Positions 1-6,465 of a stretch of DNA of 6,465 nucleotides are shown piece after piece. Position 1 is the stretch's first letter, and every line of letters begins with the position of its first letter. The notes under the pieces were generated by a model. It saw only the letters and a list, made by a program, of their open reading frames with translations, was not told where the DNA came from and did not search any database. Both the position numbers and the translations under genes were made by a program. Source of the stretch: a virus (lineage: Duplodnaviria > Heunggongvirae > Uroviricota > Caudoviricetes); the IMG/VR virus record IMGVR_UViG_2778261313_000001, positions 1-6,465 of that record, one strand, 5' to 3'.

Positions 1-84
1 CGGTTCAAAGCTCTGCTGAACAATTGCGATCTTTTCCTGTGTGGTACGCCGTCTGCGTTTCTCCGGCCCTAAGACATCAATCAT
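1..84 (-). CDS. insC: IS2 transposase OrfA (InsC), N-terminal 28 codons only (partial, continues beyond window start)
   Basis: ATG on - strand at 84..82; translation [28 protein letters not shown]; the basic RRRR stretch followed by QEKIAIV is the start of the IS3-family OrfA helix-turn-helix region. Confidence 0.85.
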
Positions 85-175
85 CTGTTCTCCAATGACT
101 AGTCTAAAAACTAGTATTAAGACTATCACTTATTTAAGTGATACTGGTTGTCTGGAGATTCAGGGGGCCAGTCTA
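1..175 (-). mobile_element. IS2 (IS3 family) insertion sequence, terminal ~175 bp including the inverted repeat; the rest of the element lies left of the window
   Basis: Reverse complement of 1-84 encodes [28 protein letters not shown], which I recognise as the N-terminus of IS2 OrfA/InsC, with GGAG Shine-Dalgarno upstream of its ATG. Positions 86-175 match the IS2 terminal region as I recall it, ending ...GATTCAGGGGGCCAGTCTA at 175. Identification is from memory, not a search. Confidence 0.88.
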
Positions 176-179
176 ATTC

Positions 180-782
180 TTGGTTAACATGGATAGTATT
201 AAGGGGTCTGGTGCATATTTCCCTATTATCGCTGGCTATAGTAACTTAGGTGATGTTGGTTATCGTCAGTCCTTCGAGTTTGGTTGGACGGGTAGCGGTT
301 CGACTCACGGTTGGCGTACTGGTATTATCCGTATGCGTGGCGATAACGCCAACGGGCAGCAAGCACGCTGGGAATTTACTATGGATGGTGACTTTACCGC
401 AGGTCGTAACGGTAGCTTTAACGATGTTTACATTCGCTCTGACTCCCGTTTGAAGATTAACAAGGAAGAATTACAGGACGGCGCATTAGAGAAAGTAAAC
501 TCCCTGAAAGTCTACACCTACGATAAAGTTAAATCTCTTTCAGATGACACAGTGATTAAACGCGAAGTAGGTATTATTGCTCAGGATCTGGAAGAAGTGT
601 TGCCGGAAGCAGTAGGTATTCAATCCACCGAAGATCCAGAACAACCGGAAGCAATTAAGACTATTTCTAACTCTGCTGTTAATGCCTTGATTATTAAAGC
701 TATTCAGGAAATGGACGCCAAATATCAAGCTAAGATTGAAGCATTGACTAAAGAGATTGCCGAACTCAAAGCAACTAAATAA
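180..782 (+). CDS. 3' fragment of a tail fiber/tailspike gene with C-terminal Peptidase S74-like intramolecular chaperone domain; probably truncated at its 5' side by the IS2 insertion
   Basis: Frame is open from 177, immediately at the IS2 junction (the TAA at 174-176 is formed by the IS2 end plus one flanking base). Possible starts are TTG 180 or ATG 189, neither with a convincing Shine-Dalgarno. Motif RSDSRLK (nt 435-455) gives a Ser...Lys spacing like the catalytic dyad of S74 chaperone domains, followed by GIIAQDLEEVLPEAV, typical of that domain. The part before the motif is Gly/Ser/Thr-rich, fiber-like. Ends TAATAA at 779-784. Confidence 0.6.
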   Translation: MVNMDSIKGSGAYFPIIAGYSNLGDVGYRQSFEFGWTGSGSTHGWRTGIIRMRGDNANGQQARWEFTMDGDFTAGRNGSFNDVYIRSDSRLKINKEELQDGALEKVNSLKVYTYDKVKSLSDDTVIKREVGIIAQDLEEVLPEAVGIQSTEDPEQPEAIKTISNSAVNALIIKAIQEMDAKYQAKIEALTKEIAELKATK

Positions 783-790
783 TAAAAGTC

Positions 791-807
791 GGGGGACTAG
801 TTCCCCC
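791..807 (+). terminator. GC-rich hairpin (GGGGGA-CTAGT-TCCCCC) after the fiber gene; weak terminator or RNA stability element
   Basis: 6-bp stem with 5 G:C pairs and a 5-nt loop, 8 nt past the stop; followed by an A/T-rich stretch but no immediate U-run. Confidence 0.3.
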
Positions 808-838
808 ATAATAACAATTTTAATTAAGGGGTAATTCT

Positions 839-1309
839 ATGTCTCAATTTAATGATATTTTTACTGGTGGTCTGGTAAGTCTGTTCTATCACGCTGATAC
901 CACTAACACCGCTCTCGATCACTCCGGTTACGAAGAAATTAAAGAGTGTGCTGGTTTTCCTGAAACTGGTATCGAGCGCGGTACTGTAGAAGTTAAATCC
1001 TTCTCTTCTCAGTATAACCGTAAGCTGGTAGGGAAACTGAACGTTCCTGATCTGACTCTGACCGTTAACTACATCCCAGGCGATGCGGTGCACGAGAAGC
1101 TCATTAAAGCTGCCGAAGACGGTACTCGAATTCAGATTAAGATTGAATACTATGTTGATGCAGCAAAACAGACTGGTATTCGCACCGCTTTCAACGGCTT
1201 TATTTCTAAAGTTGCTATGAACGGTGGCGATGAAGAAGTTGTAACCAAAGAGTTTACCTTCGCGGTGGACGGAAAGCCGATCAAACAGGAAATCTTCACT
1301 GCCGGATGA
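839..1309 (+). CDS. major tail tube protein, lambda gpV-like tube domain (156 aa); in-frame UGA stop followed by 41 sense codons to TAA at 1433-1435
   Basis: Shine-Dalgarno AAGGGG at 826-831, 7 nt before ATG 839. The segment DLTLTVNYIPGDAVHEKLIKAAEDGTRIQIKIEY lines up with the lambda gpV segment [34 protein letters not shown] as I recall it. Position upstream of the chaperone pair and tape measure gene; terminator downstream. Confidence 0.75.
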   Translation: MSQFNDIFTGGLVSLFYHADTTNTALDHSGYEEIKECAGFPETGIERGTVEVKSFSSQYNRKLVGKLNVPDLTLTVNYIPGDAVHEKLIKAAEDGTRIQIKIEYYVDAAKQTGIRTAFNGFISKVAMNGGDEEVVTKEFTFAVDGKPIKQEIFTAG

Positions 1310-1440
1310 ACTAACGAAGAACTTCCTTTAATAGAACCGGAACCACTACCGGAACATGAAGCGGTGGTGATTCCAGAAGTAGAAGAAGTTACGGCGAAAG
1401 CCACAGCAAAACGAGGCCGCAAGGCTAAGAATTAATTTTA

Positions 1441-1468
1441 AGCCCTGCCTTAATGGTGGGGCTTTTTT
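1441..1468 (+). terminator. rho-independent terminator after the major tail protein region
   Basis: Stem AGCCCTGCC (1441-1449) pairs with GGTGGGGCT (1455-1463), 9 bp including 2 G:U pairs, loop TTAAT, followed by TTTTT at 1464-1468. It begins 6 nt after the TAA at 1433-1435. Confidence 0.7.
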
Positions 1469-1483
1469 ATTGGAGTAATCAAA

Positions 1484-1990
1484 ATGGCAAATGTCGTTAA
1501 TAAGCCCGGCTGGGTCGGATCATCTGCTGTATCGGTGACGGGTAAGCGATGGATGAAAGAAGCATTAACAGCTTTAAAAGTTCCGGCTCCGCGTAATATG
1601 TCGGCAATGGCTGGTCGTGGTATGGATACGGTTGTAGCTACTGCATCGTGGTCTACTTCATTGGGTAATAACTGGGGTGTAACTGCTTCAAACTATCCTG
1701 TTTCCGGTATGCAAAGCAAAGGATCTATGGAGAACCCCGAAAACGTGGGCGTAGGCCGTCTAATTGGCGTTATCGTTGGTCAATTCAATGGCGGTACTCC
1801 TACTATGGCTGTATATCTCCAGAACGGTAGAGCGGGGAATATAACCGTTAATTTGGGTGGTGCTGCTGTCACTGTTCCTTATAACAGTATGCAAAGTGGT
1901 TTTCATTACTACTGGTTAAGCAATCCTCCGGCAGCTTTCCTCAATAACATTAAGAAGACTGGCACTAAGCAGACTTTGAAAATCTCTTAA
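1484..1990 (+). CDS. hypothetical protein (168 aa), Gly/Ser/Thr/Asn/Ala-rich and acid-poor, no obvious signal peptide; function unknown
   Basis: Shine-Dalgarno GGAG at 1472-1475, 8 nt before ATG 1484. 507-nt open frame in AT-rich DNA; co-oriented with and sandwiched between the major tail and chaperone genes. Confidence 0.7.
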   Translation: MANVVNKPGWVGSSAVSVTGKRWMKEALTALKVPAPRNMSAMAGRGMDTVVATASWSTSLGNNWGVTASNYPVSGMQSKGSMENPENVGVGRLIGVIVGQFNGGTPTMAVYLQNGRAGNITVNLGGAAVTVPYNSMQSGFHYYWLSNPPAAFLNNIKKTGTKQTLKIS

Positions 1991-2032
1991 ATTCTAAATA
2001 AACATATCGAATTAACTTAAGAGGAAACAAGA

Positions 2033-2341
2033 ATGAATATTAATGAAATGCTGAAAGCTCTTTCTCCGAAACGCGAATCTCTGACCATCGGTGGATTCAC
2101 TTTCTATGCTCGCCCTATGTCAGTAAAAGAATTTAACGAACATGTTTTCAATACCGATAAAGATGACCGTGATGAACGTTCTATTCTTCGTTGTATTGAA
2201 GATGAAGACGGTAAACCAGTATTTGAATCTATGGAACAAGTTAAGGCACTGTATACTAACGTCCGCAGTGAATTAATCGGTTTGGTTGCTCAAGCGTCAT
2301 TGATGCAAGATCCGACAGTAATTGAAAACGAGGTAAAGTAA
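2033..2341 (+). CDS. tail assembly chaperone, gpG-like (102 aa)
   Basis: Shine-Dalgarno AAGAGGA at 2017-2023 before ATG 2033. Small acidic protein directly upstream of the tape measure gene, with an overlapping -1 frame ORF downstream. Confidence 0.75.
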   Translation: MNINEMLKALSPKRESLTIGGFTFYARPMSVKEFNEHVFNTDKDDRDERSILRCIEDEDGKPVFESMEQVKALYTNVRSELIGLVAQASLMQDPTVIENEVK

Positions 2342-2712
2342 ACCCGCTTCTGAATTTCTATTTTCGGCAAATGATGCGATCGGGGCTTAGTAAAGATGAA
2401 ATGGATAATATGCCAATCACTCTGTTTTGGAAATTATACATTTTCGACACCTACTTAGAACCACAAAGCCCCGCGTTTCATGATATGCAGAATGCGATGT
2501 TGCAATATTCCATGTATATGACGTCGCAAGGAATGACACGCGAAACTGCACGCAAACTCAAGCCTAGCCAATTCCAATTAATTAGAGAAGAAAAACTCTT
2601 TAAAACTAAAGAAGAACTGGAAGAAATTGCACGCAAGAAAGAAGAAGAACGTAAAGCGGCAATGCTGAACATGTTTGATCCATCTTTGCTTGAGAAACTC
2701 AGAAGCGGTTAA
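2326..2712 (+). CDS. gpT-like segment of the tail assembly chaperone, probably expressed as a G-T fusion by -1 ribosomal frameshift near 2333-2341 (fusion would span 2033..2712)
   Basis: The -1 frame is open from 2326 (TGA at 2323-2325 closes it upstream), overlapping the last 16 nt of the G ORF, and runs to TAA at 2710-2712. The first in-frame ATG (2371) has no Shine-Dalgarno (preceding sequence TTTTCGGCAA). Confidence 0.6.
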   Translation, partial: KRGKVNPLLNFYFRQMMRSGLSKDEMDNMPITLFWKLYIFDTYLEPQSPAFHDMQNAMLQYSMYMTSQGMTRETARKLKPSQFQLIREEKLFKTKEELEEIARKKEEERKAAMLNMFDPSLLEKLRSG

Positions 2713-2723
2713 AGGGGTAATTT

Positions 2724-5153
2724 ATGACAAAACATATAGTAACAATAGAAGGGGATAATAAAGGTCTAAGGAGAAGTACCAATGAAGCCGCCGACCTTCT
2801 CGATAGTTTGTCTGAAAAGGCAAGTAATATTGATTTTGGTGGTGGCTTATCTGGTCTGACTGGATCTCTTCGTGGGATCGCTGGCTCTGCTGGTTTGGCT
2901 GCTGGTGGTATCGGCTTAGTTGCGACCGCAGTGGTTGCAGCCGCTAAAGCTGGCGCGGAATACGTTAAACAATATTCAGAAGTATCTAAGGCGACCGGAC
3001 TCTCGATTGAATCCCTTCAAAGACTGGAAAAGGAATTTTCTGGTACTGGCCTAACAGTTGAAAAATTCGGTGATATCAACAAAGACACCTTAGATAAGAT
3101 GGGTGATGCATGGGCTAACGGTGGTGGTATTGCTGATGACTTAGAATCGGTTGGTCTTAAGTTAGAAAACTATGCTCACTTCATGACAGATCCGCAAGGT
3201 GGTATGAAAGCGGCGATCCAAGTGTTCTATGACATGAAGAAAGCCGGAAAATCAATGGCTGAAATCAAGTTCATGATGGAATCTTTAGCCAGTGATTCAA
3301 GCCATATGACCAGCCAGCTTGAGAAATATAATAGTGCTCAAGAGGCGATGATCGCTATTCAGAATCAATCTGTTAACGTCACCGAAGAAAACGCTAAAAA
3401 ATATGATAAATTTTCTCAGAATATTAATAAGCTGGAAAATAACCTGAAAGGCGCAGCCATGACCATTACTGGTCCTTTGGTTGATAGCTTAAACTGGTTA
3501 TTTGAATGGTTTAATATTGATTGGGAAAAGAGTTCTCTATTCAGGGCATTAGACCGTCTGAATAAAGAAGGTAAGACCGCAACTGGTGGTATTCTTAACA
3601 CCAACCATAAAGACGCTCAAAAGATTATTGACAAGTACAATAAAGAAAAGCGTTGGAATAATCTAGCAGATTGGGAAAAGGCCGCGATCCGTGGTGCTGG
3701 TGTCGATCCTCGTACTGCTGGCTTTGATGTAGAAGGATTTAAGAAACGTTTTGGTGGGTCTTATAAGAAAAATGGTGCTCTGATTGTCGTAGATGCTGGT
3801 GAACATCTGACACGCAAGGCAGATCCTAACACTGATTTAACTCTACCAAATAAACCAGTAAGACCAGAATCATTGGGTAAATCTGGCAACGAGAAGAAAG
3901 CCGAGGAAGAAGCACGCAAGAAAGCGGAAGAGGCAGCTAAAAAGGCTAAGGAAGCCGCAGAAAAAGCACAGAAAGAACGTGAGGATGCAATCAAGCGTCT
4001 GAATGCACTTGATGTTAAATTGCAAGGGCAAGTTGCAGCGTCTATTGCTTCTCAAAACAAGCAGTTAGAAGCCAGCTTGAAAGATTTGGATACTGCTTTA
4101 GATCTGGGCTTAATCTCTCAGCAAGACGCAGCCGCGAAACGCCAATCCTTAATCGATCAGAATACTGAAAACGTATACAAGATGATTTTAGGTGCTGATC
4201 CGGTTGATGCTCTGAATGCTTTAACACAATTGCAACAAATCAGGGATAATGAGTTAGAAAGCCATAAACGGTTACTTGATGGTAAGGCTATCTCCTACGA
4301 AGAATATATGCGTCGTGTGAATGATACCGAACAAAGTTATTCGCAGATTGAAGATTCTTTGCATGGAATGGATGGTTTTAAAACCAATCAGTTGACCAAT
4401 AGCTTAGACTATCAGGACTCAAATAATCCGTTTGCTAAATTTAATGCAATCGATAAAGAGAAATCGGAAGCCGAACAAGATTATAAAACCGATAAACTCA
4501 AGATTGATGGGATCACCGATCCGGCTAAACGGATGGAAGAATTAGAAAAACTCAATGAAAACCATCAAAAACGAATGGCTGCAATTGAGAAGAAATATGC
4601 TGATGCTCGCCAGTCAATAGCCGATGATATGTACGGCGGTTTTGCTGCTGCAATGACTCTCTTCGGGCAGGAAAACACTAAAGCTATGCAGATGGCTTTC
4701 AATGCTCATAAAGCATTCTCTATCGGACAAGCGACGGTGAACATGTGGACGGCTGCTACCGATGCATGGAACGATCCGACCAACGTAACCACAGGTCAAA
4801 AAATCGCTGCTGCTGCATTGGCTGTTTCTCAGAACATGGGGAACATCGCAAACATCAAGTCTACTAACGTTAGCGGTATGGCTCATGATGGTATCGATAA
4901 TATCCCTCGTGAGGGTACATGGTTGCTTGATAAGGGTGAACGAGTAGTTGATCAGCGTACTAACGGTGATTTGAAAGACTTCCTTGCTGCTCAAAAATCA
5001 GGCGGTGGCAACTCTCAGCCGATTGAAGTTAACGCACCTTTGAACATTAACGGCAACGTTAATAGCTCAGACAAGATGGTCATGGATGCTATCAAACGTC
5101 ACGCTAAGTTAGTTGCTCAGGCGGTAGAAGACGCACAACGCCGTAAGATGTAA
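2724..5153 (+). CDS. tail length tape measure protein (809 aa)
   Basis: Shine-Dalgarno AAGGGG at 2712-2717 before ATG 2724. Largest gene, directly after the chaperone pair. Gly-rich hydrophobic segment near the N-terminus (GGGLSGLTGSLRGIAGSAGLAAGGIGLVATAVVAAAKAG), a K/A/E-rich coiled-coil block (KKAEEEARKKAEEAAKKAKEAAEKAQKERE), and a second hydrophobic segment toward the C-terminus. Confidence 0.9.
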   Translation: MTKHIVTIEGDNKGLRRSTNEAADLLDSLSEKASNIDFGGGLSGLTGSLRGIAGSAGLAAGGIGLVATAVVAAAKAGAEYVKQYSEVSKATGLSIESLQRLEKEFSGTGLTVEKFGDINKDTLDKMGDAWANGGGIADDLESVGLKLENYAHFMTDPQGGMKAAIQVFYDMKKAGKSMAEIKFMMESLASDSSHMTSQLEKYNSAQEAMIAIQNQSVNVTEENAKKYDKFSQNINKLENNLKGAAMTITGPLVDSLNWLFEWFNIDWEKSSLFRALDRLNKEGKTATGGILNTNHKDAQKIIDKYNKEKRWNNLADWEKAAIRGAGVDPRTAGFDVEGFKKRFGGSYKKNGALIVVDAGEHLTRKADPNTDLTLPNKPVRPESLGKSGNEKKAEEEARKKAEEAAKKAKEAAEKAQKEREDAIKRLNALDVKLQGQVAASIASQNKQLEASLKDLDTALDLGLISQQDAAAKRQSLIDQNTENVYKMILGADPVDALNALTQLQQIRDNELESHKRLLDGKAISYEEYMRRVNDTEQSYSQIEDSLHGMDGFKTNQLTNSLDYQDSNNPFAKFNAIDKEKSEAEQDYKTDKLKIDGITDPAKRMEELEKLNENHQKRMAAIEKKYADARQSIADDMYGGFAAAMTLFGQENTKAMQMAFNAHKAFSIGQATVNMWTAATDAWNDPTNVTTGQKIAAAALAVSQNMGNIANIKSTNVSGMAHDGIDNIPREGTWLLDKGERVVDQRTNGDLKDFLAAQKSGGGNSQPIEVNAPLNINGNVNSSDKMVMDAIKRHAKLVAQAVEDAQRRKM

Positions 5154-5158
5154 TTAAA

Positions 5159-5203
5159 AGCCCCCATAGTCATAAATAATCATAAAACTATGGGGGCTTT
5201 TCT
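5159..5203 (+). terminator. strong hairpin terminator after the tape measure gene; its 3' arm contains the Shine-Dalgarno of the next gene
   Basis: Perfect 12-bp inverted repeat AGCCCCCATAGT (5159-5170) / ACTATGGGGGCT (5187-5198), 16-nt loop, followed by TTTTCT and then ATG at 5204. Confidence 0.7.
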
Positions 5204-5764
5204 ATGTTCAAATCCAAGAATATTAAAATCACAGATTTTACTCTTAAATCAAAACAGCCTTTCTTCAAGGCGCAATCTATCTCCGGTAAATTTCAACGTC
5301 GCTTTACTGGCATTCATTTTTACGAAGCAGAATTTACCGCGAATTACATGGCTCAGGATATTAACGAAGTAAAAGAATTTGTAGCACGTCACCTTTTTGG
5401 TCGTCCTTTTAGTGTGCCACTGTCTTACTTTTCAAAATATACAGGTGATGTACGCCAGATGGTTACGGCTGCTGCTGGTACTGCTCGCGGTGGGCGTAAG
5501 GTGAGAATCTCCAACTTCACCGGAACACTGAAAGCGGGAACTATCATCCAGTTTGAGAACCACAAGAAAATCTACACGATCACCGAAGATGTGAAATCAG
5601 GTGGCGAAATGAAACTCTTCCCTAATTTGCGTCAGAACGTCCTGGCTGGTGAGGTGATCAAGTATCAGAACGTAGAAGGTGAATTTGTTCTCAAAACGGA
5701 AAATATCGATTGGAAGATCGCCCAGATTGGCAAGATGAAATTCGAATTAGTGGAGAATGTATAA
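5204..5764 (+). CDS. minor tail protein immediately after the tape measure gene (186 aa); candidate distal tail or tail tip assembly protein
   Basis: ATG 5204 with GGGGG (5192-5196) 7 nt upstream; stop TAA 5762-5764. Assignment rests on synteny only. Confidence 0.75.
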   Translation: MFKSKNIKITDFTLKSKQPFFKAQSISGKFQRRFTGIHFYEAEFTANYMAQDINEVKEFVARHLFGRPFSVPLSYFSKYTGDVRQMVTAAAGTARGGRKVRISNFTGTLKAGTIIQFENHKKIYTITEDVKSGGEMKLFPNLRQNVLAGEVIKYQNVEGEFVLKTENIDWKIAQIGKMKFELVENV

Positions 5765-6393
5765 TGGCAACTATTCAGGAATCATTCAGCAAACTATGCA
5801 CTAATCTGGACTTCATCGAGGTATACAACGACCAGACAGGTCAGAATGTGTCTAGATTGACTCTACCGCAGCTTTTCTCTACTGGCTCGATGTTTCACAT
5901 TATCGAAGTGATAACAGCGTCAGGGGACGTTCTACGGCTTACAGATGGGTATTTCGATTTGGACTATAACGGTTTTACATATCTCGCAACGGGTGATTTT
6001 CTTCAAATCTCATCGAATACCGAAGAGAAGGAGATCAACAACAACGGGATCAACGTAACTGTTTCTAACGTTCGCGAAGAATACATTAGCCTGATTCGAA
6101 ACAAGCAATTCGATAAATCTGATGTGAAAATCGAGATGGTTTTCCTTAACCCCAACACGGGCAAGGTTGAAACTACTTACCCTGTTTTCCGTGGGGTAGT
6201 CGATTCCATCGGTATTAACATCGAACATGAAGATGATGAGTGTAAAAACGAATCAGAATTTCAGCTTAATAGTATCTGGGAAGTTCTAGATAAAAACGCT
6301 CGTAGTCATGCCTCCGATGGTATCCACCGATCCTATGTTGGAAACGAGAACGATCTATTCTTCTCTCGTGCCGGGAAGTGGCAAAGCGGGTAA
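5764..6393 (+). CDS. minor tail / tail tip protein, 3'-truncated by IS1; phage-derived part is 5764..6388 and the stop codon comes from the IS1 terminus
   Basis: ATG at 5764-5766 overlaps the upstream stop (TAATG) with GGAG at 5752-5755; the track's 5710 start would overlap the upstream gene by 55 nt and is less likely. The frame runs into the IS1 terminal repeat that begins at 6389; the last codon GGG spans the junction and TAA 6391-6393 is IS1 sequence. Confidence 0.7.
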   Translation: MATIQESFSKLCTNLDFIEVYNDQTGQNVSRLTLPQLFSTGSMFHIIEVITASGDVLRLTDGYFDLDYNGFTYLATGDFLQISSNTEEKEINNNGINVTVSNVREEYISLIRNKQFDKSDVKIEMVFLNPNTGKVETTYPVFRGVVDSIGINIEHEDDECKNESEFQLNSIWEVLDKNARSHASDGIHRSYVGNENDLFFSRAGKWQSG

Positions 6394-6465
6394 TGACTCC
6401 AACTTATTGATAGTGTTTTATGTTCAGATAATGCCCGATGACTTTGTCATGCAGCTCCACCGATT
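6389..6465 (-). mobile_element. IS1 insertion sequence, terminal 77 bp (right inverted repeat end); the element continues beyond the window
   Basis: 6389-6465 reads GGTAATGACTCCAACTTATTGATAGTGTTTTATGTTCAGATAATGCCCGATGACTTTGTCATGCAGCTCCACCGATT, which I recognise as the reverse complement of the IS1 right end, including the 23-bp terminal repeat GGTAATGACTCCAACTTATTGAT. From memory, not a search. Confidence 0.88.
6404..6465 (-). CDS. insB: IS1 transposase InsB, C-terminal ~20 codons (partial)
   Basis: - strand translation ends ...[21 protein letters not shown] with stop TAA at 6406..6404, matching the InsB C-terminus as recalled. Confidence 0.8.
   Translation of the reverse strand, partial: [19 protein letters not shown]

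Follow-up and report, generated by a model that had tools for sequence, protein, structure and literature searches.

The programmed -1 frameshift of phage lambda that gives rise to gpG and gpGT was reportedly described by Levin, Hendrix and Casjens in 1993 and by Xu, Hendrix and Duda in 2004, 2013 and 2014. Its canonical heptamer, G_GGA_AAG, lies several codons before the G stop, and lambda G-T is reported to need no stimulatory RNA structure. The resulting ratio of G to GT is about 30:1 (PMC5009743). Here we analyse a stretch of 6,465 nucleotides (nt) from a Caudoviricetes virus (IMG/VR record IMGVR_UViG_2778261313_000001, positions 1 to 6,465; hereafter the window) that carries a pair of overlapping open reading frames (ORFs), a G-like tail assembly chaperone gene and a T-like gene, referred to below as G and T. 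Judged from sequence comparisons, a -1 shift at the tetranucleotide A_AAG in their overlap is likely to yield a predicted G-T fusion protein.

Sites of the NNA_AAG type are known from IS1222 and Bacillus subtilis cdd, where they are stimulated by IS3/IS911-type structure or, for cdd, by an upstream Shine-Dalgarno (SD)-like element. In the dnaX gene of Escherichia coli, the heptamer A_AAA_AAG is accompanied by an SD-like element on its 5' side and by a hairpin on its 3' side. ‘Shifty stop’ frameshifting, for which Weiss et al. 1987 and 1990 are said to be the sources, is documented in phages as +1 shifts at CCC_UGA and CCC_UAA (Listeria phage and SPP1 tail genes). Shifts of -1 at A_AAG and at NNA_AAG are well documented in E. 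coli, with its single tRNA-Lys, and in its relatives, and 5' codons read by wobble-prone tRNAs favour the shift by releasing the third-position A (PMC5009743). The IS1222 and cdd sites read G_CGA_AAG and A_CGA_AAG, respectively (Licznar et al. 2003, as summarised in PMC5009743). A stop codon in the A site together with a re-pairable tRNA in the P site is ‘especially shift-prone’ (PMC3082878). Frameshifting in tail chaperone genes and these types of slip site have thus long been known; the pair described here is unannotated, and its site is somewhat unusual.

Functionally, the pair is a lambda G/GT arrangement in its position, architecture, conservation and fold, and the canonical heptamer is the element that it lacks. 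As in lambda, the tape measure gene is directly preceded by two ORFs that overlap, the second of them in the -1 frame and devoid of its own start signal. The proposed slip codon is likewise an AAG decoded by tRNA-Lys, no stimulatory RNA structure is evident, and G is predicted to be abundant and its fusion with T rare. Unlike in lambda, the site, GUA_AAG, abuts the UAA stop of G, re-pairing in the P site would be mismatched, and sequence similarity to lambda G and T is sub-threshold only. Mechanistically, the site resembles NNA_AAG sites and shifty stops more closely than lambda or dnaX. As at NNA_AAG sites, the 5' codon ends in A and only tRNA-Lys can re-pair (AAG to AAA); in contrast to them, it has an adjoining stop codon and no conserved stimulator. 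As at shifty stops, a slip-prone P-site codon stands directly before the stop at the end of a phage tail gene; unlike in the documented cases, the shift would go in the -1 direction from AAG, and some relatives do without the stop. With dnaX the site shares the slip codon and tRNA-Lys, and two relatives (L032 and L076) carry the identical A_AAA_AAG, whereas the window has neither the heptamer nor a correctly spaced SD-like element nor a hairpin.

T overlaps G in the -1 frame and lacks start signals

The 3' end of G reads ATT GAA AAC GAG GTA AAG TAA in the frame of the 102-amino-acid (aa) ORF, with GAA at 2324-2326 and TAA at 2339-2341. Direct reading placed these codons exactly where an initial annotation of the window had them (GAA AAC GAG GUA AAG UAA, 2324-2341). 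Translation likewise confirmed that, as claimed, a UGA at 2323-2325 shuts the -1 frame and that 2326-2712 is open: this stretch contains 128 sense codons, KRGKVNPLLNFYFRQMMRSGL..., and then a stop. Because of the UGA on one side and the G stop at 2341 on the other, a shift from G into T must fall within 2326-2341, the 16-nt interval that had been proposed.

Two consecutive ORFs lie between the tube and tape measure genes, the second overlapping the first in the -1 frame and lacking start signals of its own. The first ATG of the -1 frame is at 2371. Upstream of it and of a further ATG at 2374, the best duplex with the anti-SD sequence reaches -1.7 kcal/mol, which is weaker than at roughly half of the window positions (about half of all positions reach -2 or better). 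Six other gene starts tested in the window have SD duplexes of -5.9 to -8.4 kcal/mol, with G itself at -6.0 kcal/mol, so the proposal that the downstream ORF has no SD sequence holds. Neither a promoter-like site on the + strand nor a terminator-like site was found between G and T.

The frame arrangement is conserved in relatives with an intact pair

Relatives were gathered as 31 IMG/VR prophage contigs via the tape measure protein and as additional viral contigs via a T profile. To these were added contigs with diverged T or G proteins (Providencia, Salmonella and metagenomes), two species-representative genomes and Escherichia phage DCP80, the sole related phage in GenBank. Phage genomes contained nothing that matched the region by megablast, tblastn against phages found DCP80 alone, and a first T-profile scan of genome contigs gave no match. 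The hosts and sources covered are E. coli, Salmonella, Providencia, Edwardsiella-type prophages, Buttiauxella and metagenomes.

Wherever both genes are intact, the 3' end of G is overlapped by T in the -1 frame. The initial annotation had called for this comparison of homologous chaperone pairs and had named homologues without an overlapping -1 frame as the outcome that would count against a frameshift; the arrangement recurs in all intact pairs, and no intact relative examined lacks it. The overlap is kept in 29 of the 31 IMG/VR loci, the exceptions being L021 and L007, in which T or G is disrupted. Both the frame arrangement and the slip site are conserved among homologues, a feature of lambda-type G/GT frameshifts.

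L021 has an in-frame TAA inside T (about 3890) and L007 a shortened G frame (G region, about 3454); both may be decaying prophage copies. In L029 (junction about 3600-3620), a 3-nt insertion falls exactly at the slip site, giving AAG TAG TAA ACC. It adds one Val to the T frame and changes the G stop to UAG, leaving both frames intact and a stop still adjoining the site.

These loci bear on the view that the pair is a single GT gene that has decayed in a defective prophage by frameshift mutation or has been mis-sequenced. The degraded appearance of some relatives (the stop inside T in L021 and the short G frame in L007) is what such a view could cite. It is very improbable, given that the same -1 architecture is found in dozens of independent assemblies from several genera, that both frames are under purifying selection, that the L029 insertion preserves both and that a single-ORF GT homologue occurs in 0 of 67 T clusters and 31 G clusters.

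Two of the relatives carry unexpected labels. Phage DCP80 (L001, PQ671644, record 13777-16877) has a 141-kb genome labelled Straboviridae/Tevenvirinae/Gaprivervirus, and nonetheless contains a siphovirus-type module of G, T and tape measure genes, all of them annotated as hypothetical, with U_UUA_AAG; its taxonomy label or its assembly may be questionable. L077 comes from a metagenome-assembled genome labelled Sphingobacterium yanglingense (JBEBQJ010000175) and encodes a G that is 55% identical, the site GAA_AAG_UAA and a T in the -1 frame. Its place in a Bacteroidota bin may be a binning artefact, all other hosts being Enterobacterales.

The -1 frame carries a coding signature ahead of its first ATG

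Between the G stop and the first ATG, 30 nt can be read in the T frame. Across relatives, all 10 third positions of this stretch vary, compared with 4 first and 2 second positions. When codons are compared pairwise, the ratio of synonymous to nonsynonymous differences is 676:258 in the T frame versus 87:724 and 118:699 in the other two. A T-frame stop occurs in none of the 19 distinct sequences and a G-frame stop in 17 of them. The peptide K-V-N-P-L-L-x-F-Y-(F/Y)-R-Q is kept through synonymous codons (four for Leu, four for Arg, AAC/AAT and CCG/CCC). On these substitution patterns, the -1-frame peptide upstream of the ATG is under purifying selection. ATG, GTG and TTG are all absent between the -1-frame stop and the K-V-N-P-L-L peptide. 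Because the coding signature has no start codon in front of it, the stretch would have to be translated by ribosomes arriving from G.

The ATG codons themselves are less constant. Some relatives have TTA or ATT at 2371, and others TTG or CTA at 2374. In L075 both ATG codons are missing (CAA GCG CTT AGA) and KVNPLLTFY is retained, and in the tblastn alignment with DCP80 the match begins before the ATG. These observations weigh on the alternative in which no frameshift occurs, T is translated from a start of its own (ATG 2371/2374, or 2410 in RefSeq) by initiation or by reinitiation after termination, and the overlap is incidental. An ATG stands at one of the two positions in most relatives, the G stop is only 30 nt upstream, which makes reinitiation conceivable, and RefSeq, gene callers and all database records list G and T separately. 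We nevertheless consider independent synthesis of T improbable: it is opposed by the lack of an SD sequence upstream of either ATG, by the 10 codons with their -1 signature, by L075, by the start of the DCP80 match and by the retention of A_AAG at the same spot across the family.

A_AAG is the invariant element of the junction

Within the window family, GTAAAG is invariant in 26 of 26 distinct junction segments. The base before it is G in 24 and A in two lineages (A_GUA_AAG in L068 and L069). The window clade and most Salmonella and E. coli relatives have (G/A)_GUA_AAG, with UAA as the next codon (UAG in L029). Other lineages depart from this form in the preceding codon, the following codon or both. 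For example, L075 has G_GCA_AAG and L077 has G_GAA_AAG, each followed by UAA. The canonical A_AAA_AAG is followed by UAA in L076 from Buttiauxella and by the sense codon UCC in L032, and DCP80 has the canonical U_UUA_AAG followed by the sense codon CCG. In L064 and L072, GUA_AAG is followed by AAA and G extends four codons further. Across the family, A_AAG is the only invariant slip-competent element, and it stands at the position that the initial annotation had singled out.

Canonical heptamers are confined to the distant relatives DCP80, L032 and L076; the window's G_GUA_AAG (2332-2338) does not follow X_XXY_YYZ, as had been stated. What the window does offer is an in-frame NNA_AAG, its E. 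coli host having just one tRNA-Lys (UUU), and a re-pairable P-site codon directly 5' of a stop, A_AAG_UAA (2335-2341). A stop follows the slip codon in 24 of the 26 junction segments and also in L075, L076 and L077; it thus adjoins the site in most relatives, where four different codons are found ahead of AAG. The tRNAs that read GUA and GCA carry cmo5U34 and have an extended wobble, which fits the class of 5' codons that favour shifting. The observation that AAG is a shift codon elsewhere also stands (lambda G_GGA_AAG and dnaX A_AAA_AAG). In-frame NNA_AAG dicodons are rare in the window genes (9 of 1,935), and the chance of finding one in the 5 available overlap slots is about 2.3%. This single-sequence signal is modest and suggestive, and the weight rests on conservation across relatives.

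Two further options within the overlap were rejected: a slip at GAA_AAC (2324-2329), at which re-pairing is poor and whose codons are not kept outside the closest clade, and a +1 shift, as the +1 frame closes after about 17 codons without leading into T. Literature searches with the heptamer string matched only unrelated primer and microRNA (miRNA) papers.

Variation around A_AAG also bears on the choice between a slip by one tRNA and a tandem slip by two, in which tRNA-Val (cmo5UAC) would move from GUA to GGU while tRNA-Lys moves from AAG to AAA on G_GUA_AAG. Tandem slippage would give the same fusion peptide; G_GUA_AAG is one base from lambda's G_GGA_AAG, the G before GUA is present in 24 of the 26 segments, and distant relatives use true tandem heptamers. 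It is unlikely here: on GGU, the Val anticodon would be mismatched (A:G) at its central position, and the base before GUA and the preceding codon both vary (A_GUA_AAG, G_GCA_AAG and G_GAA_AAG), so re-pairing of the P-site tRNA is not conserved. As re-pairing of tRNA-Val is not a conserved requirement, the site behaves as the NNA_AAG single-tRNA type.

Slippage of RNA polymerase, producing a subpopulation of -1 mRNA, is the remotest of the explanations considered and extremely improbable. The A7 runs of L032 and L076 could in principle support it, whereas the window site has runs of A3 only, and transcriptional slippage requires longer homopolymer runs (PMC5009743).

A predicted single-tRNA slip beside a stop codon

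In the mechanism that we propose, a minority of ribosomes translating G (2033-2341) would shift -1 at A_AAG (2335-2338). The single E. coli tRNA-Lys (anticodon mnm5s2UUU) would leave AAG (2336-2338) and re-pair with AAA (2335-2337), the adjoining stop, being slow to decode, probably aiding the slip. Decoding would resume at GUA (2338-2340) in the T frame and run on to 2712. The product would be a G-T fusion of 226 aa (2033-2338 joined to 2338-2712) with the junction ...IENEVK/VNPLLNFYF..., and the majority of ribosomes would stop at UAA 2339-2341 and release the 102-aa G. If the roles are those known from lambda, the tape measure protein would be coated by G and by the G part of GT, and the T part would recruit the tube protein. 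A single-tRNA slip of tRNA-Lys from AAG to AAA beside UAA is what the initial annotation had favoured, and it matches what the family conserves.

Slippage of one tRNA on the hexanucleotide NNA_AAG is a more probable mode of action than tandem slippage on an X_XXY_YYZ heptamer with RNA structure. We infer the slippage itself, its efficiency and its timing in the A site or the P site; the slip would take the form of an NNA_AAG hexanucleotide shift or of a P-site ‘shifty stop’, and the two timings give the same protein. A doubtful but distinct possibility is that a -1 shifty stop is the programmed signal of the family; slow termination at an A-site UAA next to a P-site AAG would then replace both re-pairing of a second tRNA and RNA structure.

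No stimulator was found that is conserved with the site. The initial annotation had suggested folding the RNA downstream of 2341 for a stimulatory structure; none emerged, as folds of 2339-2420 and 2300-2460 were less stable than shuffled sequences (z of +1.25 and +1.40, respectively). RNAalifold across 11 diverse relatives gave 3 pairs at -0.45 kcal/mol with no covariation, and Rfam gave no match. An upstream SD-like GAGGU (2330-2334) adjoining the site was rejected as a candidate, being UCGGU, GAAGU or GCGGU in relatives and therefore not conserved. The pair thus lacks the downstream structure or upstream SD-like element that accompanies other NNA_AAG sites.

Several points weigh against the proposed frameshift and its mechanism. 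Without a downstream structure, efficiency could be very low. In E. coli reporters, the A_AAG tetranucleotide alone is barely above background and reaches 5.6% only with a pseudoknot (PMC4066793), and this near-background activity of a lone A_AAG counts against the proposal. A sense codon replaces the stop in L064, L072, L032 and DCP80, so the stop is not essential, and conservation of the UAA is confounded by the overlapping -1-frame Val codon GUA. At the protein level, the matches of G and T to Phage_TAC_13 and Phage_tail_T are both below cut-off, and the hhalign match to lambda GT is weak (E of 0.069). The weakness of A_AAG alone (PMC4066793) also makes the adjoining UAA a plausible substitute stimulator. 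By analogy with the ratio in lambda, a low efficiency would suffice and would even be required.

Similarity of G and T to known chaperones

By position and predicted fold, G is a tail assembly chaperone. It matches PHROG 344 ‘tail assembly chaperone’ (E of 8e-7) and, at 21.5 bits (E of 3e-4) under a gathering cut-off of 28.8 bits, Pfam Phage_TAC_13. An AlphaFold (AF2) model of G built from a 29-sequence alignment (pLDDT 79) has the HK97 tail assembly chaperone 2ob9 as its top Protein Data Bank (PDB) match (E of 4e-3, probability 1.0, TM 0.54-0.58), and it also resembles many viral proteins named tail assembly chaperone in BFVD. Fold and PHROG 344 family thus agree with the lambda-type role of G. 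T matches Pfam Phage_tail_T at 21.8 bits (E of 2.5e-4), under a gathering cut-off of 25.9 bits. Weak matches of the Phage_TAC_13 and Phage_tail_T type also occur in relatives. The hhalign comparison with lambda GT covers the T region only and pairs the post-junction stretch with the equivalent part of lambda T, and a GT-alignment profile search of solved structures gave no significant match. At the sequence level, similarity of G and T to the lambda G and T families is sub-threshold, and their membership of these families is not established.

Public annotation of the pair is uneven. RefSeq lists T as a hypothetical protein with a start at window position 2410. Many NCBI records label G homologues (P0068-P0094) ‘cytochrome’, which looks like a propagated misannotation given the chaperone fold and gene position.

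Genomic context

The window represents a tail module of siphovirus type from an E. coli prophage. Strain HCP5S3_I4 matches it at 100%, and at least 80% of it is present in 17 of 5,426 complete E. coli genomes. The gene order is tail-fibre C-terminus, tube, Gp38-like adhesin, G, T, tape measure, distal tail protein and baseplate hub (Table 1). The order within 180-1990 is unusual, with the S74 tail-fibre C-terminus before the tube gene and the Gp38-like adhesin before the chaperones. The 100% E. coli match is limited to 176-6388, with the window ends 1-175 and 6389-6465 outside it, and more than 10,000 E. coli records match parts of the window, presumably via shared tail-fibre segments. The restricted full match, together with the many partial matches, points to mosaic window ends.

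Table 1. Coordinates of the predicted G-T junction and of other features in the window
Feature	Coordinates	Strand	Basis or remark
G-like tail assembly chaperone ORF, 102 aa, zero frame	2033-2341	+	ORF list
T-like ORF as conventionally called, 113 aa	2371-2712	+	ORF list
UGA closing the -1 frame, 5' limit of the shift window	2323-2325	+	Direct sequence reading
Proposed slip site GUA_AAG	2333-2338	+	Core A_AAG 2335-2338; heptamer G_GUA_AAG 2332-2338
UAA stop of G, directly 3' of the slip codon, candidate ‘shifty stop’ stimulator	2339-2341	+	
-1-frame codons VNPLLNFYFRQ, predicted to be translated only after the shift	2338-2370	+	Upstream of any start codon
Tail-fibre C-terminus with Peptidase_S74 intramolecular chaperone domain	180-782		Upstream of the tube gene
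Major tail (tube) protein gene, lambda-like	839-1309	+	PHROG 158, E 7e-22; Pfam Phage_TTP_11
Gp38-like adhesin gene	1484-1990		Between the tube gene and G
Tape measure protein gene	2724-5153	+	PHROG 13674 (tail length tape measure protein), E 9e-64

Implications

In public records, the first gene of the pair appears as ‘cytochrome’ or ‘hypothetical’ and the second as a truncated ‘hypothetical’ gene, and the predicted G-T fusion, which is probably essential, is absent from all of them; correcting such entries is one main use of the finding. The finding leaves the understanding of tail assembly unchanged. If the shifty-stop reading were true, the ratio of G to GT would be set by, and possibly responsive to, host release factor activity, and the family would have a stimulator-free, termination-coupled -1 site in a tail chaperone gene. 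The family forms a natural series of A_AAG sites preceded by GUA, GCA, GAA, AAA or UUA, with or without an adjoining stop, most of which would be missed by frameshift predictors limited to X_XXY_YYZ. As a compact set of natural variants, it could be used to test how -1 slippage in enterobacteria depends on the P-site codon and on a stop next to the site.

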